Part shown: positions 4,035 through 23,768 of the stretch, piece by piece
Numbering within the stretch: the stretch's first letter is position 1
How the letters are laid out: the number at the start of each line of letters is the position of its first letter
Assembly: GCA_964649495.1 (NCBI GenBank)
Contig: CAZYPR010000005.1
Span: 7,128-71,127 of the forward strand
Source: an uncultured Clostridia bacterium
GTDB taxonomy: Bacteria > Acidobacteriota > Aminicenantia > JBFLYD01 > JBBIMS01
Length of the DNA: 64,000 nt
Direction: 5' to 3'
Translations under genes and position numbers: made by a program
Notes under the pieces: generated by a model
What the model saw: the letters and a program-made list of their open reading frames with translations, nothing else
What the model was told of the DNA's origin: nothing
The model's database searches: none

Positions 4035-5012
4035 GTGAGAAAAATGGTTAAAGAGATAGAAAATGTATGGAGGTATACTATGAAAAAGATACTTTTTTAT
4101 AGTATGCTTTTCTTTCTCCTATTTTCTGGTATTACTCCTGCACAGGAAGATTATCCAGGCAGCAAGGACCATCCCATTATCAGTCGCTATCCTGGCTCAC
4201 AGATAGTCCATTATTCACAAAAACAGTTTGATGAGTATTATCTGCTTACAGGGTCTATAAAATCAAGTTCGGACAAAGATATTCAAAATGCCAGAAAGAT
4301 AAGACTTGAAGGAAAAGTTACAAAAATCACCTATGAGGCACCAAAGGATAGGAGCAATTTTGAGGTTTATAAGAACTATGAGCAAGCCCTTGAAAAAGCA
4401 GGTTTTAAGATACTATATAAAGGTAAGGGCAATGAAATAAGGGGGGTTCCCAGTTTTCTTCACAAAATGAACCGCGAGTACACGGGAAGCTGGAGTGACC
4501 CTGATATATACCCCTGGTTTTACCTCTCAGCAAAATCGCTTGATGATAAATACTTTATCTCCCTTTATGTGCATGGCAGTAAGCCTGTAGTTGTCCTTGC
4601 CGTGGTGGAGCCAGAACAAATGCAGACAGGGCTTATTACAGCAAAGATGATGGAAAGACAGATTTCCGAGACAGGCAGGGTTTCAATTTACGGAATATAC
4701 TTTGACTTTGACAGTGCGGAGATAAAACCAGAATCAAAACCAACACTTGATGAGATAGCAAAACTCCTGAAGGAAAGCCCAAAACTCAAACTCTATGGGG
4801 TTGGACATACTGACAATGTTGGAGGACTTGAATATAATATAAATCTATCAAAGAGAAGGGCTATGAATGTGGTGAAGGAACTTGTTGAAAAATACGGCAT
4901 AGAAAAAAGTAGACTTACACCCTTTGGAGTTGGTCCCCTTTCACCTGTAGCCTCAAACAGGACCGAAGAGGGCAGGGCAAAAAATAGACGGGTTGAACTT
5001 GTTGAACAATAA
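4035..5012 (+). CDS. OmpA-family outer-membrane/peptidoglycan-associated protein (signal peptide; likely true start at 4080 MKKILFY)
   Basis: The C-terminal OmpA_C domain reads YFDFDSAEIKPESKPTLDEIAKLL...GHTDNVGGLEYNINLSKRRAMNV...RRVEL. The N-terminal hydrophobic signal is LFYSMLFFLLFSGITPAQ. Confidence 0.8.
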   Translation: MRKMVKEIENVWRYTMKKILFYSMLFFLLFSGITPAQEDYPGSKDHPIISRYPGSQIVHYSQKQFDEYYLLTGSIKSSSDKDIQNARKIRLEGKVTKITYEAPKDRSNFEVYKNYEQALEKAGFKILYKGKGNEIRGVPSFLHKMNREYTGSWSDPDIYPWFYLSAKSLDDKYFISLYVHGSKPVVVLAVVEPEQMQTGLITAKMMERQISETGRVSIYGIYFDFDSAEIKPESKPTLDEIAKLLKESPKLKLYGVGHTDNVGGLEYNINLSKRRAMNVVKELVEKYGIEKSRLTPFGVGPLSPVASNRTEEGRAKNRRVELVEQ

Positions 5013-12139: not shown

Positions 12140-13132
12140 ATGAAAAGATTTTTATACGTTTCATTGACAATTCTTCTTTTGCTCTCTTCTTTCTCTTTCT
12201 CAAAGAAGAATAGCGAAAATGTAATGAAGGAGTTTGTAAAATTAATCAGAATCAAAGAACCAATTTCTCACAAGAATCTTACAATCTTTCCTCTAATTTT
12301 AGAAAAGATCACAGGAGAGGGAAATATCCTCACTCAGGAAGAAGCTATAAAATCAGGTTATTTAAGAATTTACGAAAAGGAAAATGCTGAAGTCAATACA
12401 GTAATTGTCGAAAATATTTCTAAATCTTACATATTCCTTATGTCAGGAGAGCTACTCTCAGGCTGTAAGCAGGACAGAATGGTTGCCTATGATACTCTTA
12501 TTCCACCAAAGAGCGGAAGATTTCCTTTGAGTGTTTTTTGCACAGAGAAAGGTAGGTGGATTCATAAAAGTGAGACTTTCAAGAGTCTTCCTTTTACTGC
12601 TAATCCAAAAATGAGACAGGTGGCGATGGAGACAGAGAGTCAGGAGAGGGTATGGGCAGAAGTTTCGAGGAAGAGGGAAGAGCTAAAGGCAGAACCTTCT
12701 GAAACAGAAGCTTTTCAGCACATTGTTAAAGACAAAAAGGTTGAAAAAGAAGTTGAGGACTATGTTGAAAGCATTGATAAAATTTTTCCTTTTTACAAAG
12801 AGAAAAATTTAACAGGAGTTGTTGTGACAATTGGAGATGATATTATTTGCATGGACATATTTTATCATCCAGAGCTTTTTAAAAAATTATGGCGAAAACT
12901 TCTGCATGGCTATGTTCTTGATTCTATAGGGAAAAAGAAAAATATGAGAGAATTGCCAGTGAAGAGAATTGAAGAATTCATATCAGAGATTCTCGAAGCT
13001 AATATCTATTCTGGAGAGACAGATGGCGAGGGAGAAGCTCTGAGAATTGAATCTAAAAAAGTAAGCGGAACTGCTCTCACATTCGAGAATTTTGTAATTC
13101 ATCTCCAGTTATTCCCAAAAGCACCCTTATAA
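12140..13132 (+). CDS. Hypothetical secreted protein downstream of the ECF pair
   Basis: Signal peptide MKRFLYVSLTILLLLSSFSFS. RBS aggaggttaaaaaATG. No family recognised with confidence. Confidence 0.45.
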   Translation: MKRFLYVSLTILLLLSSFSFSKKNSENVMKEFVKLIRIKEPISHKNLTIFPLILEKITGEGNILTQEEAIKSGYLRIYEKENAEVNTVIVENISKSYIFLMSGELLSGCKQDRMVAYDTLIPPKSGRFPLSVFCTEKGRWIHKSETFKSLPFTANPKMRQVAMETESQERVWAEVSRKREELKAEPSETEAFQHIVKDKKVEKEVEDYVESIDKIFPFYKEKNLTGVVVTIGDDIICMDIFYHPELFKKLWRKLLHGYVLDSIGKKKNMRELPVKRIEEFISEILEANIYSGETDGEGEALRIESKKVSGTALTFENFVIHLQLFPKAPL

Positions 13133-13266
13133 GAGGTGGGTCGATTCTCTCTAAGAGGATTCGAAATTTAAAAAGCAAAAATAAAAGAGCTTTAAGGTTT
13201 TAGCAAATTCCTAAGAAATACTCTTCAATTGACGGAAATTTTCAAAACTGATATTATAAAATTGAT

Positions 13267-13344
13267 GGTGAGCGTAGCTCAACTGGTTAGAGCACTGGAC
13301 TGTGGATCCAGATGTTGGGGGTTCGAGTCCCCTCGCTCACCCCA
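13267..13344 (+). tRNA. tRNA-His (anticodon GTG) with genomically encoded G-1 and 3' CCA
   Basis: Folded by hand. G-1 lies opposite the discriminator C. The acceptor is GTGAGCG/CGCTCAC, the D-arm GCTC/GAGC and the anticodon stem CTGGA/TCCAG with loop CTGTGGA (GTG at positions 34-36). The T-arm is GGGGG-TTCGAGT-CCCCT, followed by CCA. Confidence 0.9.
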
Positions 13345-13714
13345 TTGATTTGACTTCATAACCTTTAAACAGATTGAAAAGAAATAAATTTATAAGCGGA
13401 TTCAGAAACTGGAAGAAAGAAATAAAAAAATATTTTAGGCTCGTAAGGAAGAATGCATTAAGTTCGGTTCCCTTGTATGCTTTTCACGGTTTAGGAGTGG
13501 CTTCTTTTAGTGGTTTTATCAATGCTATTTCTTTAATGATTTTCTTCTTCTGGAACTGGAGGAGGTTCTGGAGGGAGAGCAAGATAAAAAATTAAATTAA
13601 AAAATTTAAAAGGGAAAAAATAGGTGTAAGCTGAGTAGTTGCTGGCTTAGCTTGCGAATTATTTATAAATTGCAACCGCTGCCACGATTGCTAATATAGT
13701 TAAACCTATATAAA

Positions 13715-14746
13715 TTGAAAATATACTCTTTATCTGTTATCATTTGCAACGAGGAGAGAAAGATGAGAAGATGGATTTTTATATTTCTTTTAATTTTAAT
13801 TCCATCAATTTTTTTGGCTAATGGTTTAAAACCCGCTCATACCTACTCCATTGTTGCCTATGACCCTGAGACAGGACAACTTGGTGTAGCGGTTCAATCC
13901 CACTGGTTTTCTGTTGGCTCAATAGTTCCGTGGGTTGAAGCAGAAGTGGGTGCGGTAGCTACCCAATCCTTTGTAGAAGTCTTATATGGTCCTCTTGGAA
14001 TTGAACTTATGAGAGCAGGAAAAAGTGCGGAGGAAGCTCTTTCAGCTCTTCTAAAGGCAGATTCAAACGAATCGGTGAGGCAGGTTGCAATGGTTGATGC
14101 GAAGGGAAGGGTGGCAGTTCACACAGGGAGTAAATGTATTCCAGAAGCTGGTCATTATGTAGGAAAAAATTACTCCTGTCAGGCAAATCTTATGCTTAAA
14201 AATACAGTCTGGAAAGCAATGGCTTATGCCTTTGAAAACACAAAAGGAGAGCTTGTGGACAGATTGATGTCAGCACTGGAAGCGGGTGAGGAAGAGGGAG
14301 GAGATATAAGAGGTAGACAATCTGCAGCCATAATCGTTGTAAAAGGAAAGAGTTCGGGAGTATGGTGGAAGGATAGACTCTATGACCTTAGGGTTGAAGA
14401 CCATCCAGAGCCCTTGAAAGAACTGAAAAGACTGATAAGACTTGCAAAAGCTTACAATTTTATGAATGCGGGTGACGAATTTCTTTCCCAAAACAGAGTG
14501 GAAGATGCTCTAAGAGAATACACAAAAGGTATGGAGCTATACTCGGAAAATCCTGAGATGATTTTCTGGCCCGCTGTTACCCTTGCTTCCATCGGAAAAG
14601 TTGAGGAGAGCTTACCCCTCTTCAAAAAAGTATTCTCAATAGATTATAACTGGGCAATTCTTCTTCCAAGACTTGCAAAGGTTGGACAATTTCCTGACGA
14701 TGAAAATTTGATTAAAAAGATTCTTTCCCTTGCGCCTAAAAAATAA
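13715..14746 (+). CDS. DUF1028 (Ntn-hydrolase-like) family protein with a C-terminal helical/TPR-like extension (probable true start about 13763, MRRWIF)
   Basis: The characteristic mature N-terminus THTYSIVAYDPETGQLGVAVQSHWFSVGS (TxSIvArDpeTGelGVAvQS) follows a signal-like segment. Confidence 0.65.
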   Translation: MKIYSLSVIICNEERKMRRWIFIFLLILIPSIFLANGLKPAHTYSIVAYDPETGQLGVAVQSHWFSVGSIVPWVEAEVGAVATQSFVEVLYGPLGIELMRAGKSAEEALSALLKADSNESVRQVAMVDAKGRVAVHTGSKCIPEAGHYVGKNYSCQANLMLKNTVWKAMAYAFENTKGELVDRLMSALEAGEEEGGDIRGRQSAAIIVVKGKSSGVWWKDRLYDLRVEDHPEPLKELKRLIRLAKAYNFMNAGDEFLSQNRVEDALREYTKGMELYSENPEMIFWPAVTLASIGKVEESLPLFKKVFSIDYNWAILLPRLAKVGQFPDDENLIKKILSLAPKK

Positions 14747-16775
14747 AAAGGAGGAGGACCCCATGAAAAGAATTTTTTTTATTTTTTTAATTTTTGGTTT
14801 AACTCTTTCCTTTTTATTTGCTGAAAAGAAAACACTTACTTTCGACGATTTTATCAAAATAGGTAGGGTTTCAGACCCTCAGATTTCCCCTGATGGGAAG
14901 TTACTTGCGTATGTGGTGACATATCTTTCAAAAGAAACAAACACATCCAACTCCGACATATGGATTCTTACTGAGAATAAAGAAAAAATTCAAATCACAA
15001 GGAGCCCCCGAGCTGATTTCCATCCAAGATGGAGTCCTAATGGAAAAGAGCTTTATTTTATTTCAGCAAGAGAATCTTCACCTCAAATTTACAAAATCAA
15101 AATTGGTGGTGGAGAGCCTGTCAAAATTTCGGATGTTTATCTCGGAGTCTCATCCTTTGTTATTTCTCCTGATGGAAAAAAAATAGCATTTGTATCCCAG
15201 ACATATCCCGATTGTAAAGATGATAAGTGCAATAGGGAAAAGGAAGAGGCAAAAGAAAAGAGCAAATCAAAGGTTAGAATATACGATGGATTGCTATTCC
15301 GTCACTGGAACAACTGGAGGGATGAGAAAAGAAATCATATTTTCATAATGGATTCAGACGGAGGAGAAGCTAAAGATTTGATTAAGGGTAATTACGATGC
15401 TCCTCCGGTTGCCCTTGGAGGAAATCCCGACTATTCATTCTCTCCTGATTCAAAGGAAATCGCTTTTACAATGAATAAAGATTCTGTAGTAGCAATTTCA
15501 ACAAACAATGATGTTTTTGTAATCCCCATTGAAGGTGGTGAGCCAAGAAAAATTAGTGTTGGAAAAGGTAATGATAACCAACCTTTATACTCTCCCGATG
15601 GAAAATACATCGCATTTCGCTCCATGAAAAGACCCGGATTTGAGGCAGACAGAGAAATACTATTCCTTTATGAAAGAGGGACAGGGAAGCATATTCCTTT
15701 GACTGAAAATCTTGATAGGTCTGTTGACGAAGTTGTCTGGTCTTCTGACTCAAAAAATATCTATTTTACAGCTGAGGATAAAGGTTATAAACCTATTTAT
15801 AGAGTGAATATTGATGGAAAAATTGATAAAATCCTCGATAAAGTTTTTGTTTCCCAGGTTCGACTTTATCAGGATAATAAATTTTACTTTTTAAAACAAA
15901 GTATAAATAAACCTCCTGAAGTTTTTGCATGGACTGAAGGAGAAGACCTCCTTCAACTAACCCATGTCAATGACGAACTCCTTAAAGATATAGAAATGAA
16001 TCCTGTGGAGGAGTTCTGGTTTAAGGGAGCAAAAGGAAGAAAAGTTCATGCTTTAATGGTAAAACCTCCGAAATTTGACCCTTCAAAAAAATATCCCGCT
16101 GTATTCCTCATTCATGGTGGTCCTCAGAGCTCATGGACAGACTCATTCCATTTCAGATGGAACGCCCAGATGTTCGCTTCTCCTGGATATGTTGTCATAA
16201 TGATTAACTTCACAGGAAGCACTGGGTACGGACAAAAGTTCACAGATGATATTTCTGGAGACTGGGGAGGAGCTCCATTTGAAGACATAATGAAAGGAGT
16301 TGAGTTTGCATGCAGATTTCCATTCGTTGACAAAGAAAGAATTGCTTCTGCTGGTGCATCATACGGAGGATATATGATTAACTGGATAGCAGGGCACACA
16401 GATATCTTCAAATGTTTAATATCCCATGCGGGAGTTTACAATCTTGAAAGTATGTATGGTGCAACAGAGGAGCTCTGGTTTCCTGAATGGGAATTTAAAG
16501 GGACTCCATGGACAAACAGAAAACTTTATGAGAAATTTTCTCCCCATAAGTATGCCCAAGATTTCAAGACTCCTACTCTTGTTTCCCACGGTGAACTTGA
16601 TTACAGAGTTCCTGTAACAGAGGGACTTCAGTTCTACACAACTTTGCAGAGGAAGGGTGTTCCCTCAAAACTGGTTTATTTCCCTGATGAAGACCACTTT
16701 ATTTCAAAACCAAAAAATGCTGAAATTTGGTGGAAAGAGGTTCTTGGATGGCTCGAAAAATATCTGAAGGAATAA
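14730..16775 (+). CDS. S9-family serine peptidase (prolyl oligopeptidase / acylaminoacyl-peptidase type) with an N-terminal beta-propeller
   Basis: Repeated SPDGK propeller blades. The catalytic GxSxGG nucleophile elbow is GASYGGYM. The C-terminal D and H sit in the alpha/beta-hydrolase part (DEDH). Signal peptide present. Confidence 0.85.
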   Translation: MRLKNKKEEDPMKRIFFIFLIFGLTLSFLFAEKKTLTFDDFIKIGRVSDPQISPDGKLLAYVVTYLSKETNTSNSDIWILTENKEKIQITRSPRADFHPRWSPNGKELYFISARESSPQIYKIKIGGGEPVKISDVYLGVSSFVISPDGKKIAFVSQTYPDCKDDKCNREKEEAKEKSKSKVRIYDGLLFRHWNNWRDEKRNHIFIMDSDGGEAKDLIKGNYDAPPVALGGNPDYSFSPDSKEIAFTMNKDSVVAISTNNDVFVIPIEGGEPRKISVGKGNDNQPLYSPDGKYIAFRSMKRPGFEADREILFLYERGTGKHIPLTENLDRSVDEVVWSSDSKNIYFTAEDKGYKPIYRVNIDGKIDKILDKVFVSQVRLYQDNKFYFLKQSINKPPEVFAWTEGEDLLQLTHVNDELLKDIEMNPVEEFWFKGAKGRKVHALMVKPPKFDPSKKYPAVFLIHGGPQSSWTDSFHFRWNAQMFASPGYVVIMINFTGSTGYGQKFTDDISGDWGGAPFEDIMKGVEFACRFPFVDKERIASAGASYGGYMINWIAGHTDIFKCLISHAGVYNLESMYGATEELWFPEWEFKGTPWTNRKLYEKFSPHKYAQDFKTPTLVSHGELDYRVPVTEGLQFYTTLQRKGVPSKLVYFPDEDHFISKPKNAEIWWKEVLGWLEKYLKE

Positions 16776-16800
16776 GATGAAAAAGAAAAAATCCTGAAAA

Positions 16801-17691
16801 ATGAAGAGAGTATTACCATTAATTCTATTATCTTTCTCTGTTTCTTTTCTTTGGGCTGATAATCTCGAGATACTGAAAAATAAGACCACCAAAAAAATTT
16901 TAGAAATTTGCGATAGAATTGATGGAGTTTCAGGAGTTGCAGTAAAGGATTTAAAAAATGGGTTTACTATTCTTTTAAATGAAAATGAAGTTTTTCCTCA
17001 GGCAAGTTCAATAAAGATTTCTATTCTTTTTGAAGTTTTCAAAGAAGTCGAAGAGGGAAAGCTGAGTTTTGATGAGTTCATAGAACTGAAAAAAGATTGG
17101 AAAGTAGGAGGAAGCGGTATACTTCAGCATTTAGGTGAGCCCTCCATTTCAGTCTCAATAAAAGACCTCTGCACCCTTATGATAGTTCTTTCCGACAACA
17201 CAGCAACAAATATCCTTATTGAAAGGATAGGAATCGACATAGTAAATAAAAGGCTTGAAGCTCTTGGATTGAGAAATACTAAATTGAAGAGAAAAATGAT
17301 GGATTTTTTTGCAGTAAGAGAAGGAAGAGAAAACATTTCTACTCCTTTTGAGATGATGAATCTTCTTGAAAAAATATGGAAGGGAGAAATTTTGAAAGAA
17401 CCCCTGAGAAGTGAATTCTTTAAAACCCTTTCTATTCCAAAGGACTCATATATAAAAAAGGGAGTTCCAGAAAATGTTCCAGTTGCTTCCAAGCCGGGTG
17501 CTCTTCCCCGTGTTCGATGTGAGTCAGGCATTGTCCTTCTCGATGGAAGGCCTTATATTATCTGCGTGATGACATCATTTCTGAGAAGGGAAGAGGATGG
17601 AGAAAATCTAATTACAGAAATATCAAAATTTCTTTTTGAATTTTTTCTCACTATTGAAAAATCTACACCATACGGAAGAGGATTGGATTAA
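16801..17691 (+). CDS. Class A beta-lactamase-like serine hydrolase (secreted)
   Basis: SxxK (ASSIK), SDN (LSDNTATN) and a KTG-like KPG triad (VASKPGAL). Signal peptide present. Confidence 0.65.
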   Translation: MKRVLPLILLSFSVSFLWADNLEILKNKTTKKILEICDRIDGVSGVAVKDLKNGFTILLNENEVFPQASSIKISILFEVFKEVEEGKLSFDEFIELKKDWKVGGSGILQHLGEPSISVSIKDLCTLMIVLSDNTATNILIERIGIDIVNKRLEALGLRNTKLKRKMMDFFAVREGRENISTPFEMMNLLEKIWKGEILKEPLRSEFFKTLSIPKDSYIKKGVPENVPVASKPGALPRVRCESGIVLLDGRPYIICVMTSFLRREEDGENLITEISKFLFEFFLTIEKSTPYGRGLD

Positions 17692-18161
17692 TGATAACAA
17701 AAATTACACAGGTTAACAAAAGATTCTATCTAGGAGGATATAACATGTATAAGAAAATTTTATCTTTACCCTTTATTTTTTCTTTATTACTATTTCCAGA
17801 AATAACATTTTCTGAAGAGCTGAATATGAAGGAAGGTTTATGGGAGATAACAATAAAGATGGAGATGGAAGAAATGCCTATGGAAATGCCTGCTCATACT
17901 ATTAAACAATGCATAAAAAAGGAGAATCCTATCCCCAAGTTTGAAGAGAATGAAAAAGACTGTAAATTTACAATGAAAGAGACAAAGGGAAATATCATAA
18001 CATGGGTAGCAGAATGCAAAAATGAGGAAGGGAAAATAATAATGAAAGGAAAAATAACTTACAAAGGAACTACCTTTGACGGAGTTGTTGAAGTCAAGGA
18101 GAATGATAAAATAATAATGAAGGAAAAGCTTTCAGGAAAATGGCTCGGAGAGTGTAAATAA
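17691..18161 (+). CDS. Hypothetical secreted/lipoprotein-like protein (DUF3617-like)
   Basis: Signal peptide, GLWE motif and paired Cys. Weak family assignment. Confidence 0.4.
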   Translation: MITKITQVNKRFYLGGYNMYKKILSLPFIFSLLLFPEITFSEELNMKEGLWEITIKMEMEEMPMEMPAHTIKQCIKKENPIPKFEENEKDCKFTMKETKGNIITWVAECKNEEGKIIMKGKITYKGTTFDGVVEVKENDKIIMKEKLSGKWLGECK

Positions 18162-18197
18162 AAAGATGGTTAGAAGATTGGATTTGGAAATTTAAGT

Positions 18198-18647
18198 CTA
18201 TTCTTCCTCTGTTATCTCGTCAGTAATCTCGTTTATGTCGGTTTTTTCATAAGGAAAATACTCTGACAGTTTTTCTCCTGTCATTTTAATCGCATTTATA
18301 ATACCTTCAGCGAAATTACCTTCTTTAAAATTTTTCTCCATTTCCAAGGCAATATCTTTCCAGAAATTTTCAGGGACTTTTTTGTCAATCCCCTCATCAG
18401 CAATTATTGCAAACTTTCTCTCAGCAGTGGAGATAAAAAATAGAACTGCATTCTTTCTCAAAGTCTTATAAAGCCCCAATTTAAAGAAGGCTTCTTTACC
18501 CTTCTCAAAAATGTCTCCCTTTGTCTTTCTTACAAGATGGACCGCGATCTCTCCAGTGGTTTTCATTTCCGCTTTTTTGATCTCCTGTAATATTTTTTCC
18601 CTTTCCTCCTTTGTAAAAAAGTTCTTTGGATTAGGACCCCTTCTCAT
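18198..18647 (-). CDS. TPM-domain protein (TLP18.3/Psb32/MOLO-1 phosphatase-like), second gene of the LemA module; start at ATG 18647 (MRRGPNP...)
   Basis: EEREKILQEIKKAEMKTTGEIAVHLV...FFISTAERKFAIIADEGI is the TPM-domain pattern. Its ATG overlaps the stop of the upstream TPM gene (TGATG). The six-frame ORF extends to 18791 only because the Gly-rich tail of the upstream gene is open in two frames. Confidence 0.6.
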   Translation of the reverse strand: MRRGPNPKNFFTKEEREKILQEIKKAEMKTTGEIAVHLVRKTKGDIFEKGKEAFFKLGLYKTLRKNAVLFFISTAERKFAIIADEGIDKKVPENFWKDIALEMEKNFKEGNFAEGIINAIKMTGEKLSEYFPYEKTDINEITDEITEEE

Positions 18648-19426
18648 TACCAGCTTCCTGTTGCTCCACCCCCTCCAAAACTCCCACCCCCACCCGAAAA
18701 ACCACCTCCCGAGCTCCATCCCCCCCCCCCCCCCCCAAAACCCCCCCCCCCCCCGGAAAAACCACCTCCAGAGCTCCATCCCCCACCCCAAAAGGTTGAA
18801 CTTCTATGCCATTCCCCTTTTGAGCGAGTGTAAGTCAAACCATAAGAGCTCCTCGCAAAAAACCACAATAAACAAAAAATAATTATAATTATAAAAAAAG
18901 AAATCAGAACGGATATGATTTCTACACTTTTCCCTTGCTCAAATTTGTATTCTCCACCAATTGTCTTAATCAGAGAATCCACTCCTGCTCTCAAACCACT
19001 AAAATAATCAGAATTTCTGAAGTGTGGGACAATTTCTCTATCGATTATCTGCCTTGCTGCGATATCAGGGACAGCCCCTTCAAGTCCATAACCAACTTCA
19101 ATTCTAATCTTCTTCTCCTCAAGAGCGACAAGAATTATTATTCCGTTATCCTTCCCTTTCTGCCCGATCTTCCATTTCTCGGCAAGTCTTATTGAAAAAT
19201 CCTCAATGTCCCATCCTTCAAGGGAATTGAAAATTGCAATCACAATTTGATTAGTGGTCTCTCTTTCATAATTTGAGAGGATTGTCTCAAGGGCTGAAAT
19301 CTCTTCTGGTTTAAGGACTTTTGCGTAATCAGAAACCCTTCCAAGCGGTCTTTCCGGGATTTCAATGGAATAAAGATAAGAAAAAAATTGAAGGATCAAG
19401 AAGAGATGAAATTTCTTAAATCTCAT
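18647..19426 (-). CDS. TPM-domain (YgcG-like) membrane protein with a C-terminal TM helix and a Gly-rich repeat tail
   Basis: TPM-domain pattern (GRVSDYAKVLKPEEISALETIL...TTNQIVIAIF...GIIILVALEEKKIRIEVGYGLEG) and TM segment IISVLISFFIIIIIFCLLWFF. The tail GGGWSSGGGFSGGGGGFGGGGGGWSSGGGFSGGGGSFGGGG is encoded by the poly-C tracts. Confidence 0.7.
   Translation of the reverse strand: MRFKKFHLFLILQFFSYLYSIEIPERPLGRVSDYAKVLKPEEISALETILSNYERETTNQIVIAIFNSLEGWDIEDFSIRLAEKWKIGQKGKDNGIIILVALEEKKIRIEVGYGLEGAVPDIAARQIIDREIVPHFRNSDYFSGLRAGVDSLIKTIGGEYKFEQGKSVEIISVLISFFIIIIIFCLLWFFARSSYGLTYTRSKGEWHRSSTFWGGGWSSGGGFSGGGGGFGGGGGGWSSGGGFSGGGGSFGGGGATGSW
18696..18785. repeat. Two-copy 60-nt tandem repeat (gaaaaaccacctccNgagctccatc + C-run) containing homopolymer tracts C17 (18720-18736) and C14 (18741-18754)
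   Basis: Direct inspection. The units at 18696 and 18756 are identical except for one base. The poly-C runs lie in the coding sequence of the TPM gene on the minus strand, where they read as poly-Gly. Confidence 0.85.
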
Positions 19427-20013
19427 TAAAACCTAACTTCTGGAGGTTTTTCAGCTCCTGCAATCGCTTTGAAATACTCCTTTTCTCTGAAATTTCCAAG
19501 ACTTGCAATCAAGTTGTTGGGAATCCTTTTTATGTAAGCATTGAAATCCATAACAGTTTCATTGAATCTCCTTCTTTCTACTGCAATTCTGTTTTCAGTT
19601 CCTTCGAGCTGAGTCTGGAGGGCTATAAAATTTTGATTGGCTTTCAATTCAGGATATCTCTCAACTACTACAAGAAGCCTGCTGAGAGCACTGGAAAGGG
19701 AATCCTGAGCCTGCACGAACTTTGAGAAAAGCTCAGGATTTTCAATTATTTCCTGCCCTACTTTAATCTGTCCTACAGATGCCCTTGCTCTTGTCACTTC
19801 CTCCAGAACCTCCTTTTCAAACTCCATATATCCCTTTACAGTATTAACAAGATTTGGAATTAGATCCGCTCTTCTCTGATACTGATTTTCAACCTGAGAC
19901 CATGCCTCTCTTACTTTCTCATTCTTTTTAACCATAATATTATAAACTGAAACACCCCAGACTATTAGAAGAAAAACAAGTAAACCTGCAATTAAAAACC
20001 CAAGTTTTTTCAT
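19426..20013 (-). CDS. lemA: LemA-family membrane protein
   Basis: N-terminal TM then the LemA helical pattern (...QYQRRADLIPNLVNTVKGY...RARA...NFIALQTQLEGTENRIAVERRRFNE). It sits directly upstream of the two TPM genes, the conserved LemA-TPM arrangement. Confidence 0.8.
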   Translation of the reverse strand: MKKLGFLIAGLLVFLLIVWGVSVYNIMVKKNEKVREAWSQVENQYQRRADLIPNLVNTVKGYMEFEKEVLEEVTRARASVGQIKVGQEIIENPELFSKFVQAQDSLSSALSRLLVVVERYPELKANQNFIALQTQLEGTENRIAVERRRFNETVMDFNAYIKRIPNNLIASLGNFREKEYFKAIAGAEKPPEVRF

Positions 20014-20173
20014 TTTTACTCCTTAATATAAAATGTTAATAAGATAATGGTCTAAAGTCAAATTTAAAAATTTTTGATGAGATAAATAATGCTTGCAAAA
20101 AACTCACACTAAAAAGCTAAAAAGTTTGTAATTTTTTATTTTATTTCCAAACATTCTTAATCTCTAAATTATT

Positions 20174-21361
20174 TCAGTAAGCCTTTTCAAGAATTTTTAT
20201 AATACCCTCTCTGTTCAGCTGAGGGAAATTGGCAAGATAATTTTTGCCCATCCCGCTTATTCTTACTGCATCATCAGCAATTCTTTCAAATGATTCTTTT
20301 TTCACACCCAAATCCCTTAATCTTGTCAACATACCTATTTTCTCAAGCCATTCAACCATTCTTCTAATTGTTTCCTTTGCAAGTCTTTTCTTGCTACTCT
20401 CTTGAATCTTAAAAATTCTTTCTCCTAAAAGACAGAGTCTTGATGGATTAATCTCCATAATTAATTCAAGAAATGGAGGGATTAAAGCAGAAAGTCCTCT
20501 TCCATGGGGGATGTCATATAGAGCAGATATTGGGTGTTCAATGGCATGCATAGGGAATCCTGCATTCTCACCAAAATTAGGGAATCCTGAAACAGCAAAT
20601 ACCGAGCATAAGGCAAGGTTTGTTCTTGCCTCGATATTCTTTCCATCCTCCACTGCAATGGGGAGATTTTCCATAACGGTTAGAATAACAGATTCTTGAA
20701 GTCTTTCCTGGAGAGGTGTATTAGGCTCAATATTTGTAAGGTATGGATCAAGGACATGACACATAATATCTATCCCACCTTCTCCAGTCTTATCAGGTGG
20801 GACTGTTATAGTAAAGGAGGGGTCTATTATTGAAATCTTAGGGAAAAGATGATAGGAACGGAAAAATATCTTCTCCTTTGTTCTTGGATTGGTAATTACC
20901 GCTCCGCCATTTGCTTCAGAGCCTGACGCTGAGAGGGTTGGAATCTCAATAATTGGTAAGGCTGATGTAATCCTTCTCGGGATTTTTATTCCATCTGGGA
21001 TATAATCCCAAATCTCTCCTTCCTCCTTTGCTACAACTGCAATCCCCTTGGCTGAGTCCATAGCAGAGCCACCCCCAAGCCCTATAACAAAATCACATTT
21101 CTCTGCTCTTGCAATTTTCCCCCCTTCGTCAACAACATCATTCCTTGGATTTGATTCAATCCTGTTAAATATAACAGTTTCAATATTCTCTCTATCAAGA
21201 AGTTCTATAACTCTTTCAAGGACTCCATTCTTCAGGGAACTCTTTTTTCCTGTCACAATGATAGCCTTTTTGCCAATGCTTTTGGCTTCAACACCAATTC
21301 TTTCAAGAGTTCCAATACCAAAAATCAGTTTTGTGGGTAAATAGAGGTCAAAATTTAACAT
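20174..21361 (-). CDS. Iron-containing alcohol dehydrogenase (Fe-ADH family)
   Basis: GGGSAMDSAKGIAV NAD-binding motif and the metal-binding His cluster (HAIEHPISALYDIPHGRG). Confidence 0.85.
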   Translation of the reverse strand: MLNFDLYLPTKLIFGIGTLERIGVEAKSIGKKAIIVTGKKSSLKNGVLERVIELLDRENIETVIFNRIESNPRNDVVDEGGKIARAEKCDFVIGLGGGSAMDSAKGIAVVAKEEGEIWDYIPDGIKIPRRITSALPIIEIPTLSASGSEANGGAVITNPRTKEKIFFRSYHLFPKISIIDPSFTITVPPDKTGEGGIDIMCHVLDPYLTNIEPNTPLQERLQESVILTVMENLPIAVEDGKNIEARTNLALCSVFAVSGFPNFGENAGFPMHAIEHPISALYDIPHGRGLSALIPPFLELIMEINPSRLCLLGERIFKIQESSKKRLAKETIRRMVEWLEKIGMLTRLRDLGVKKESFERIADDAVRISGMGKNYLANFPQLNREGIIKILEKAY

Positions 21362-21510
21362 ATATATTACAGTTTAAATTAAAATCTTTTTACAATTTAT
21401 TGTCAAGGGATACAAAAGGAAAAAACTTTTTTCTAACATCTTTGTTATGTTAATATCTTCATTGTATCCCGGTCTTTCATAACCTTTCAGTTTCGTTCTC
21501 CTTTTCCCAT

Positions 21511-21528
21511 TTGTGAAATTTTTCCCAT
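21511..21528. promoter_or_regulatory. Possible Rex-type (redox-sensing repressor) operator half-palindrome upstream of the Fe-ADH gene
   Basis: TTGTGAAATTTTTCCCAT matches 12/14 positions of the Rex consensus TTGTGAAnnnnTTCACAA. It is about 150 nt upstream of the ADH start on the minus strand. Flanking it is a triple repeat of TTT(T)CC(C)ATTT at about 21502, 21521 and 21553. Confidence 0.2.
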
Positions 21529-21609
21529 TTCTCTTCTATTTTTTCATTCGATTTTTCCATTTTAAGCTTTTAATCTTTTCAAAGATGGATTCTATTCCTG
21601 TTATACTAC

Positions 21610-22458
21610 TTATTTATACTCGTAAAATCCTTTCCCACTCTTTCTTCCAAGATAACCCGCATCCACCATTTTCCTGAGAAGGGGGCAGGGTCTGTATTTT
21701 GGGTCGCCAAATCCTTCATAAAGAACTTCCATTATATCAAGGCAGACATCAAGACCAATGAAGTCAGCAAGGGTGAGAGGTCCCATGGGATGGTTCATCC
21801 CAAGTTTCATAACAGTATCGATTGCCTCAGCAGTTCCAACTCCCTCCATCAGAGCGTAAATTGCCTCATTTATCATGGGCATAAGAATTCTGTTGGATAT
21901 AAAGCCCGGATAATCCTTTGCCTCAACAGGAACTTTCCCCATTTTTTCCGCAACACCTTTTACAAGATTAAAAGTTTCGTCATCTGTTGCAAGCCCTCTT
22001 ATAATCTCAACAAGGGTCATAATGGGAACAGGATTCATAAAGTGCATTCCTATAACCCTATTCGGTCTTTTTGTTACACTTGCTATTTTTGTTATGGAAA
22101 TAGAGGATGTGTTTGTTGCAAGAATTGCCTCTGGTTTGCAGATTTTATCAAGTCTCTCAAAAACCTCCTTTTTTACATCGAAACATTCGAAAACTGCCTC
22201 CACAACAATATCGCAATCTGCAAAAACATCCAGGTCTGTTGTAGTTTTAATCCTTGAAAGTATTGATTCTTTGCTCTCCTGAACCTTCCCTTTCTCAATA
22301 AGCTTATCAAGGCTTTTCCCAATAGTTGAAATAGCCCTATTGAGAATCTCATCGTTTAAATCGTGGAGAACTGTCAAAAAACCCGTAGTGGCAGAGACCT
22401 GGGCAATTCCAGAACCCATTGTCCCTGCTCCCACAACTCCTATCTTTTTAATTTCCAT
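21610..22458 (-). CDS. hbd: 3-hydroxyacyl-CoA / 3-hydroxybutyryl-CoA dehydrogenase
   Basis: N-terminal Rossmann motif [16 protein letters not shown] and the 3HCDH signature region (...[11 protein letters not shown]...). Confidence 0.85.
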
Positions 22459-22583
22459 AAAAACCTCCTATAGAAACTTTTATATAAATTTTTCCTTAAA
22501 GAAAATCACATGTCAAGGAGAAAACAAATTTTAATCAATCCCTTAAACCTAAAGCAATTTTCAGGAATGCATTTTTTTAAAAT

Positions 22584-23768
22584 TTAAACTGCTTCCACAG
22601 AAAGGGCTACCGCAGAACCTCCCCCAAGACAGAGGGTTGCAAGTCCTGTTTTTGCATTTCTTCTCTTCATTGCATAGAGGAGAGTGGTGAGTATTCTTGC
22701 ACCCGATGCTCCTATTGGATGCCCAAGGGCAACCGCTCCTCCATGAACATTAACCCTTTCCCAATCCCATCCAAGCTCTTTCCCATCAGCAAGGACCTGA
22801 GCGGAAAAAGCTTCGTTTATCTCGATGAGATCGAAATAGTCTATACTCTTTCCCATTTGTTTAAGTAATTTTTTAACAGCCTCCACAGGTGCATAAAATA
22901 GCATTTTTGGCTCAACTGCTGAAACTGAATATCCAGTGATTAAAGCCATGGGCTTCAATCCTAATTCCTTTAATTTTTCTTCCGATACAACAAGAATTGC
23001 GGATGCACCATCATTCACAGAAGGAGCGTTCCCTGCGGTTATTGTTCCATTAGGCTTGAAAGCAGGCTTAAGCTGGGAAAGTTTTTCAAGGGATGTGTCC
23101 CTCCTCGGTCCCTCATCAGTATCAACAATTACAGGTTCTCCCTTTTTCTGGAGAACTGTGACAGGAACAATTTCATCCTTGAACCATCCGTTGTCGATTG
23201 CTCTTAGAGCCTTCTGATGAGAATTAAAAGCAAACTCATCCTGCATTTCTCTTGTTATACCTGACCTTTCTGCAGTAAATTCTCCCAATTCTCCCATGTG
23301 CTTATTTTCGAATGAATCCCATAAACCATCGAAAATCATTAAATCAATAAGTTGTCCGTGTCCCATTCTGTAACCAGTTCTTGCTCTCTGGAGGGCATAG
23401 GGGCAGTTGCTCATAGATTCCATTCCTCCTGCAAGAATCACATCTGCATCTCCCGCCTTTATTGCCTGTGCTGCAAGCATAACAGCTTTTAATCCTGAAC
23501 CACAAACCTTATTAATTGTTATTGCTGGAATTTCAGGTGGGAGCCCTGCCTTTATCTGTGCCTGCCTTGCTGGAGCCTGTCCTATACCCGCTGAGACAAC
23601 ATTACCCATTATAATTTCTTCAATCAATTTAGGGTCGATTCCCGCTCTTTTTACTGCCTCTTTAAGGACAATTGCTCCAAGCTCAACAGCAGTAAGGGAA
23701 GAGAGACTCCCCAAAAAACTCCCTATCGGAGTTCTCACTGCCGATAAAATAAAAGCTCCTTTTGCCAT
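22584..23768 (-). CDS. Acetyl-CoA C-acetyltransferase (thiolase II)
   Basis: N-terminal AFILSAVRTPIGSFLGSL, active-site Cys region NKVCGSGLKAV and C-terminal GGGSAVAL... thiolase signatures. Confidence 0.9.
   Translation of the reverse strand: MAKGAFILSAVRTPIGSFLGSLSSLTAVELGAIVLKEAVKRAGIDPKLIEEIIMGNVVSAGIGQAPARQAQIKAGLPPEIPAITINKVCGSGLKAVMLAAQAIKAGDADVILAGGMESMSNCPYALQRARTGYRMGHGQLIDLMIFDGLWDSFENKHMGELGEFTAERSGITREMQDEFAFNSHQKALRAIDNGWFKDEIVPVTVLQKKGEPVIVDTDEGPRRDTSLEKLSQLKPAFKPNGTITAGNAPSVNDGASAILVVSEEKLKELGLKPMALITGYSVSAVEPKMLFYAPVEAVKKLLKQMGKSIDYFDLIEINEAFSAQVLADGKELGWDWERVNVHGGAVALGHPIGASGARILTTLLYAMKRRNAKTGLATLCLGGGSAVALSVEAV

Follow-up and report, generated by a model that had tools for sequence, protein, structure and literature searches.

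The locus examined here raises the question of whether two long G/C homopolymers in the coding sequence of a TPM-domain gene switch between protein architectures, conceal a fused gene, arose during sequencing and assembly, or are an incidental product of a low-complexity tail. The analysis covered a 64-kb stretch of DNA, hereafter the window, in which both homopolymers lie in the second of three genes encoded on the minus strand. The first gene (19426-20013) encodes a LemA protein of 195 aa (PF04011, E = 5.8e-60), and its stop codon overlaps the start of the gene that follows. This second gene, TPM1 (18647-19426), encodes a BA41-like, membrane-anchored protein of 259 aa that matches the TPM domain family PF04536 (TLP18.3/Psb32/MOLO-1; E = 3.6e-42) and, over residues 9-259, BA41 itself (PDB 5ANP, E = 1.5e-34). 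The third, TPM2 (18198-18647), encodes a stand-alone, BA42-like protein of 149 aa (PF04536, E = 8.6e-24; PDB 4OA3, E = 1e-27) with neither a signal peptide nor a transmembrane segment. TPM1 is composed, in this order, of a signal-like N-terminus, the TPM domain (aa 31-154, approximately 18965-19336), a transmembrane helix (aa ~168-191, ~18854-18925), a basic stretch, and a Gly-rich tail (aa 214-259, 18650-18787), all on the minus strand; the N-terminus, the helix, and the basic stretch were identified by inspection of the sequence. The positive-inside rule would place the tail in the cytoplasm. TPM1 and TPM2 share a TAATG stop/start overlap at 18645-18649 (minus strand), composed of the TPM1 TAA at 18649-18647 and the TPM2 ATG at 18647-18645, just as the initial annotation had described, and this arrangement is consistent with translational coupling of the two genes.

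The closest characterized counterpart is the LemA/BA41/BA42 module of Bizionia argentinensis, which likewise combines LemA, a TPM protein with a transmembrane helix and a Gly tail, and a stand-alone TPM protein. The C-terminal motif GGGG[AS][ST]G.W is common to this module, to the YgcG-type proteins of PF04536, and to TPM1 of the window. Judged by its predicted gene content, the locus is an ordinary LemA/BA41-like TPM/BA42-like TPM operon, with every feature of that group present. The biochemical role of the module is poorly defined, with phosphatase or ATPase activities described in vitro (PMC13456599). A search of the window against Rfam returned a single match, a tRNA at 13268-13341, and none at the homopolymers, while the promoter and terminator scan was uninformative, yielding one hairpin (18264-18283) within the coding region of TPM2.

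Regarding the homopolymers themselves, C17 (18720-18736) is followed on the plus strand by AAAA and C14 (18741-18754), and the coding strand across both reads TCC-G14-TTTT-G17-ATGG. These are the sole C/G runs longer than 6 nt in the 64-kb window, whose GC content is 35.9%. The first in coding order, tract A (G14, 18741-18754, minus strand), encodes GGGG and supplies the first two bases of the GGT codon before a conserved Phe; tract B (G17, 18720-18736, minus strand) encodes GGGGG and supplies the first two bases of a GGA codon, and it is the point at which other assemblies of this locus break. Both lie in a tandem repeat at 18669-18789 (minus strand), for which TRF reported a period of 60 nt, 2.0 copies, a score of 193, 88% matches, and 0% indels. 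The run count and TRF thus bear out the initial description of C17 and C14 inside a 60-nt tandem repeat in the Gly-rich tail of a TPM gene. Read along the coding strand, one unit begins at 18781 and the next at 18721; their products, GWSSGGGFSGGGGGFGGGGG and GWSSGGGFSGGGGSFGGGGA, duplicate the family-conserved segment GWSSGGGFSGGGG(G/S)FGGGG of the TPM1 tail. Aligned with each other, the units are of equal length and show 10 differences and no indel; in 8 of these 10 positions unit 1 has G where unit 2 has T, A, or C. An intact first copy of the motif lies upstream of tract B, an arrangement readable as design and in that respect counting against an incidental origin. Elsewhere in the window, Gly is encoded by GGA (53%), GGT (25%), GGG (16%), and GGC (6%). 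Since GGG accounts for only 16% of these codons, nine GGG codons in a row would be expected with p ~6e-8, and the stretch is not a chance codon pattern. In the assembled sequence, both tracts are in frame, and TPM1 ends in ...SFGGGGATGSW, which is the family-wide ending.

Runs this long are known to be prone to slippage, and the consequences of length changes were followed in silico. A gain of 1 nt in either tract yields a TPM-TM-linker-TPM fusion of 409 aa, and a loss of 2 nt yields one of 408 aa. In contrast, a loss of 1 nt or a gain of 2 nt in either tract yields a protein of 264/265 aa with an altered tail that stops at 18631. The initial annotation had stated that a change of one nucleotide in either direction would fuse the genes; this holds for +1 (and for -2), whereas -1 (like +2) only exchanges the tail. 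None of these shifts truncates the TPM domain, and the predicted frames contain no ON/OFF outcome. The tail region was also said to be open in two frames; the alternative frame is indeed open, but the count is three. The TPM2 frame runs open for 156 nt upstream of its ATG, to ~18803, and the linker of the hypothetical fusion, read out of frame, would be MELGRWFFGWGWEFWR. Of 6 relative loci inspected, 5 likewise have a TPM2 frame that stays open for 114-324 nt upstream of its ATG, and at three loci (L086, L087, and L094) the TPM2 predicted by gene callers reaches into the tail. The alternative frame is open because the tail is G-rich and stop codons need T and A, and it is, to judge from these loci, generic to the TPM1 family rather than special to the window.

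The comparison with relatives drew on a close set of 8 loci with DNA (L002 and L085-L091; 66-82% identity) and on a distant set of 80 loci from many phyla. The closest homologous proteins (P0002-P0011, 66-82% identity) have C-termini of the form ...GGGFSGGGGSFGGGGATGSW, like TPM1 of the window. The close loci share the order LemA (195 aa), TPM1 (244-250 aa), and TPM2 (149-154 aa), with TPM2 visible only where contigs reach it (the contig of L090 stops at the TPM1 stop codon), and the T[AG]ATG junction is conserved in all close relatives. In these 8 loci, the tails use predominantly GGA for Gly, and the longest G run is 5-6 nt. The 60-nt duplication is absent from all 8 of them, and just 15-nt GGWSS/GGGFS duplications were found. 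Among the 80 distant loci, the final 150 nt contain no G run longer than 2-8 nt, depending on the locus, and the C-terminal ending G.FGGGG[AS][ST]G.W is nearly universal; loci of the Bacteroidota type have TPM2 preceding TPM1. Tracts like G14 or G17 were found in none of the 88 relatives for which DNA was compared (8 close, 80 distant). Among 188 homologous proteins, runs of 4-8 Gly residues are usual, and 185 of the 188 end in GGGG[AS][ST]G.W. Additional strains were sought with a metagenome DNA scan using GCAACAGGAAGCTGGTAATG, which returned FMSI01093134, already in the comparison, and the unrelated contig L084 but no further strains, and with a search of genome contigs, which gave distant relatives only (at most 53% identity), with no close one among the matches listed. 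The tails clearly evolve through small in-frame duplications. The tail in the window is ordinary as a protein save for 20 duplicated residues, and its oddity is, as far as the comparison reaches, purely one of DNA. Set against the BA41/BA42 module, the window differs in the 20-residue tandem duplication of the tail, in Gly codons homogenized to GGG, and in G14 and G17, features that the DNA of none of the 88 relatives shows.

The same loci bear on the possibility, raised initially, that the assembly miscounted a tract and that the native gene encodes a single fused TPM-TM-polyGly-TPM protein. The length of G17 is backed by one assembly only, and fused proteins do occur in databases, one (P0121) in frame and five others through a frameshifted linker. 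However, the frame as assembled already yields the conserved Phe, the conserved C-terminal motif, and the stop/start overlap, and a TPM1-TPM2 fusion was present in 0 of the 8 close and 0 of the 80 distant loci. Many phyla have TPM2 before TPM1, which argues that fusion is no need of the family. With the in-silico fusion as query, no fused close relative was retrieved, only two long singletons, namely P0121, an in-frame read-through (GSW-W) into TPM2, and P0122, one ORF holding two TPM1-type units. When P0121 was scanned against 1.84 billion representatives, 26,379 hits were obtained, and among the best 150 of these, five (P0202, P0210, P0232, P0256, and P0284) cross the junction. Their linkers are W/R-rich and out of frame, like the hypothetical one of the window, and further frame disruptions are apparent in at least P0210 and P0232. 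Given such linkers and the extra disruptions, these five look like indel errors or pseudogenes. The database fusions are thus singletons, several with multiple frame disruptions, and fusion is, on the evidence of these sequences, not the native architecture. We regard a hidden natural fusion in the window as hardly probable at all.

How far the tract lengths can be relied upon was assessed with neighbouring assemblies of the same population. A protein identical to TPM1 of the window (P0187) stems from an NCBI contig of 73,841 bp, which traces the window to an NCBI record. Exact-sequence searches with TPM1, TPM2, and P0187 yielded no indexed contig, and the neighbouring assemblies were located through LemA and a beta-lactamase-like gene. 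In the ENA assembly ERZ3623746, NODE_130 (coverage 6.4) is 99.98% identical to positions 18732-23426 of the window, and the match ends at 18732; the 29 nt at its tip have no match in the window and were treated as contig-end junk. The partner contig, NODE_1155 (coverage 5.96), matches 12801-18729 at 100% identity and stops at 18729, after 10 G of tract B. In a Logan contig assembled from SRR6344962, the sequence TCA-G15-TTT-G12 breaks off at 18725. Tract A is therefore G14 in the ERZ3623746 contig and G15 followed by TTT in the Logan contig, a difference (G14 TTTT vs G15 TTT) that is length-neutral across three assemblies that are probably one read set. The only differences between the assemblies are of the A/C type (TCA vs TCC) and the G/T type (G14 TTTT vs G15 TTT). 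G17 is spanned in the window assembly alone, and both others break in tract B. SRR6344962 is a metagenome of Zavarzin Spring, Kamchatka (PMC8468003), and the Zavarzin data consist of 84-nt paired Solexa reads, trimmed at Q10 and assembled with metaSPAdes (PMC6395817). From their near-identity, the three assemblies are probably views of one read set of ~6x coverage. Because two assemblies break inside the tracts, the lengths 17 and 14 are not secure, and the exact tract lengths, that of G17 above all, are not established.

These observations lend some weight to a second explanation, in which the tail really uses a mixture of Gly codons, as unit 2 and all relatives do, and the tracts were made by sequencing and assembly. 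Dephasing, together with G/T and A/C cross-talk in old 84-cycle Solexa reads of a G-rich context, would have turned isolated T and A bases into G, and the 60-nt duplication might additionally be a mis-serialized variant path. The equal lengths of the repeat units and the excess of G in unit 1 fit such a base-call bias ("G-washing"), as do inter-assembly differences confined to A/C and G/T calls, the breaks of two assemblies in tract B (one with a 29-nt junk end), the ~6x coverage with Q10 trimming, and the lack of such tracts in all 8 close and 80 distant relatives. The same pattern of units may, however, equally fit a loss of interruptions compensated by selection for frame. Had the runs grown by slippage alone, the units should differ in length, and their lengths are equal. 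The strand-specific Illumina errors that are documented best fall on T behind a G-rich motif (GGGT, GGCGGGGT), with rates of 12-25% on the GAIIx and MiSeq (PMC3622629). The locus resembles such cases in its contig ends inside a tract in two assemblies, in the G/T and A/C differences, and in the old, low-coverage GA reads from which it was built. It differs in that strand-specific rates of up to ~25%, taken alone, do not account for a clean G14 in three assemblers; at such rates, a consensus base would change only where almost every read derives from a single strand. Moreover, three assemblers each give G14-15 for tract A, the neighbouring GGTGGT and GGTGGGGGTGGG, covered by the same reads, stay unconverted to G, and the G10-ATGGAGCTCGGG junction is present in an independent contig end. 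As for the duplication, variant bubbles are usually popped by assemblers rather than placed in tandem. A substantial contribution of sequencing and assembly to the tracts is the main rival of the favoured reading, although we consider it less likely than not.

A third explanation, and the more far-reaching one of the initial annotation, is an evolved contingency locus in which tract length toggles between split TPM1 and TPM2, a tethered fusion, and a TPM1 whose tail is altered. In studied bacteria, poly-G becomes unstable at lengths that both tracts, with 14 and 17 nt, far exceed. The three open frames would give a full-length product in every state, the fusion is topologically plausible with the TPM1 tail and TPM2 both predicted to be cytoplasmic, and length heterogeneity could underlie the assembly breaks. 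In poly-G/C contingency genes of Campylobacter, Neisseria, Haemophilus, and Helicobacter, a homopolymer in the coding region likewise shifts the frame by slippage, and G14 and G17, with their exact lengths uncertain, both surpass the length of at least ~8 nt by which such tracts are recognized. In contrast to those genes, the tract in the window is accompanied by no observed length polymorphism, conservation, or nearby repertoire: the three assemblies (probably one read set) contain no length variant and differ only in length-neutral ways, the tract occurs in 0 of 8 close and 0 of 80 distant orthologues, where the longest G run is 8 nt, and the 64-kb window holds no other G/C run above 6 nt. 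Neither of the further hallmarks, a tract kept in orthologues or several tracts nearby, was thus seen in the 88 loci and the 64-kb window. The open frames are a generic effect of G-richness in the family, and fusion would forfeit the near-universal C-terminal motif. Frameshifts leave the gene on and lead to alternative full-length products, whereas those in the four genera act ON/OFF. TPM1 belongs to a housekeeping-type envelope module and is neither a surface antigen nor a restriction-modification gene, and the organism of the window is a free-living hot-spring bacterium. Separate genes with clean, non-homopolymeric tails in the orthologues were one of the outcomes that the initial annotation had named as speaking against its own proposals, and this is what all 88 loci displayed; with no orthologous G run above 8 nt, no further such tract in 64 kb, and no switch-off, the proposal of a contingency locus found no support. 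An evolved locus of this kind appears very improbable, and so, in our estimate, does the proposition that the tracts are real, hypermutable, and reversibly switch split TPMs with a tethered fusion or a tail-swapped TPM1.

The mixture of split and fused products could also be envisaged at the RNA level, through transcriptional slippage or ribosomal frameshifting on the G runs. All frames are open, and long homopolymers can cause polymerase slippage. Such slippage is nevertheless best documented on A/T runs, not on G runs, the tracts are conserved in none of the relatives (8 close, 80 distant), and no architecture of slippery site plus stimulator was identified in the window, where Rfam gave no element at this site. 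We therefore consider recoding scarcely probable. A role of the tract as a G-quadruplex or mRNA structure was likewise set aside, since the tract is conserved in no relative.

With modest confidence, we favour the reading in which the tail is a lineage-specific, low-complexity in-frame duplication with G-homogenized codons in one of two separate genes, and in which the tracts, if real, would be an incidental frameshift hot spot. TPM1 and TPM2 would be two separate, translationally coupled genes of a standard LemA-TPM-TPM operon. In one lineage, the Gly-rich tail of TPM1 would have gained an in-frame tandem duplication of 60 nt, and in the upstream copy the Gly codons would have become almost all GGG, producing G14 and G17. 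As assembled, TPM1 is in frame and simply has 20 extra residues in its tail. If the runs are real, they would form a slippage hot spot at which a change of 3 nt in either direction adds or removes one Gly, a change of +1 or -2 nt gives rise to the TPM-TM-linker-TPM fusion, and a change of -1 or +2 nt replaces the conserved C-terminus. The tracts would then have arisen incidentally as a low-complexity region that tolerates poly-Gly evolved, and would probably be no evolved switch. The operon anatomy, the consequences of each frame, the pattern of conservation among relatives, and the breaks in the other assemblies are direct observations, and to these the favoured reading adds the topology of the tail, the hypermutability of the tracts, and the absence of an adaptive role, all of which we infer.

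Should the tracts prove both real and variable, for which we found no support here, they would constitute homopolymer-driven architectural switching, which would be unusual outside host-associated bacteria, and a case of phase variation that alters protein architecture, not gene on/off, in a free-living thermophile. The main value of the locus lies in annotation and data quality. For this contig, the two TPM genes should stay separate and the tract lengths should be flagged as unverified. More generally, the Gly-rich tail of YgcG/BA41-type TPM genes has no stop in any frame and lies directly against the following TPM gene, so that any indel, real or erroneous, yields a plausible-looking fusion ORF, and several TPM fusions of the frameshift type are already present in protein databases.

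In comparison with the loci of close relatives (L002 5355-8741, L085, and L086), the synteny of the window was lost directly past the gene encoding the stand-alone protein TPM2. Downstream of TPM2, these relatives carry genes encoding CDP-alcohol phosphatidyltransferase, HAD, (Macro), and MutL, in place of which the window bears convergent DUF3617, class-A-beta-lactamase-like, and S9 peptidase genes (16801-18161). In the Bacteroidota/Chlorobiota-type loci (L006, L011, L046, L047, L057, L058, L070, L071, and L075), the TPM2 gene is situated ahead of the gene encoding the membrane-anchored TPM1, an order opposite to that of the window as well as of loci of the delta-proteobacterial and Nitrospirae types. 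Against Rfam, the whole window matched nothing but one tRNA gene (13268-13341).

On the 1.2-kb contig L084 (JGI Ga0115028_10242536), unrelated to the window, a small non-TPM ORF (363-909) encodes a coiled, Lys/Arg/Ala-rich part followed by a Ser-rich part, terminates in GGGGRFGGGGATGSW at the stop codon, and overlaps the next gene as TAATG. The protein P0172, composed of a TPM domain and a DUF2207-like C-terminal region, ends in GGGGFGGGGASGGW. Given these two termini, the Gly-rich C-terminus GGGG[AS][ST]G.W is a module present also outside BA41-type proteins.

In ERZ3623746 NODE_130 (L001), a contig assembled from the same hot-spring population as the window, G14-TTTT-G5 is followed by a 29-nt tip (4696-4724), TGAGGTCAAATAATTTTTTAAAGATGCCA, which had no match anywhere in the window and gives rise to a spurious 235-aa TPM1 (P0001) ending in GGEVK. 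This contig tip is probably chimeric or erroneous. Automatic gene calls made the TPM2 N-terminus too long in L086 (3657-4184), L087 (752-1273), and L094 (5398-5928), adding approximately 25 residues from the TPM1 tail (173-176 aa versus 149), since an alternative frame is open in that tail. Additionally, the public proteins P0202, P0210, P0232, P0256, and P0284 each unite a TPM1-type and a TPM2-type gene in one entry through a W/R-rich linker, which corresponds to the Gly tail read out-of-frame. These joined entries look like frameshift errors or pseudogenes, suggesting a recurrent annotation trap in the TPM family.
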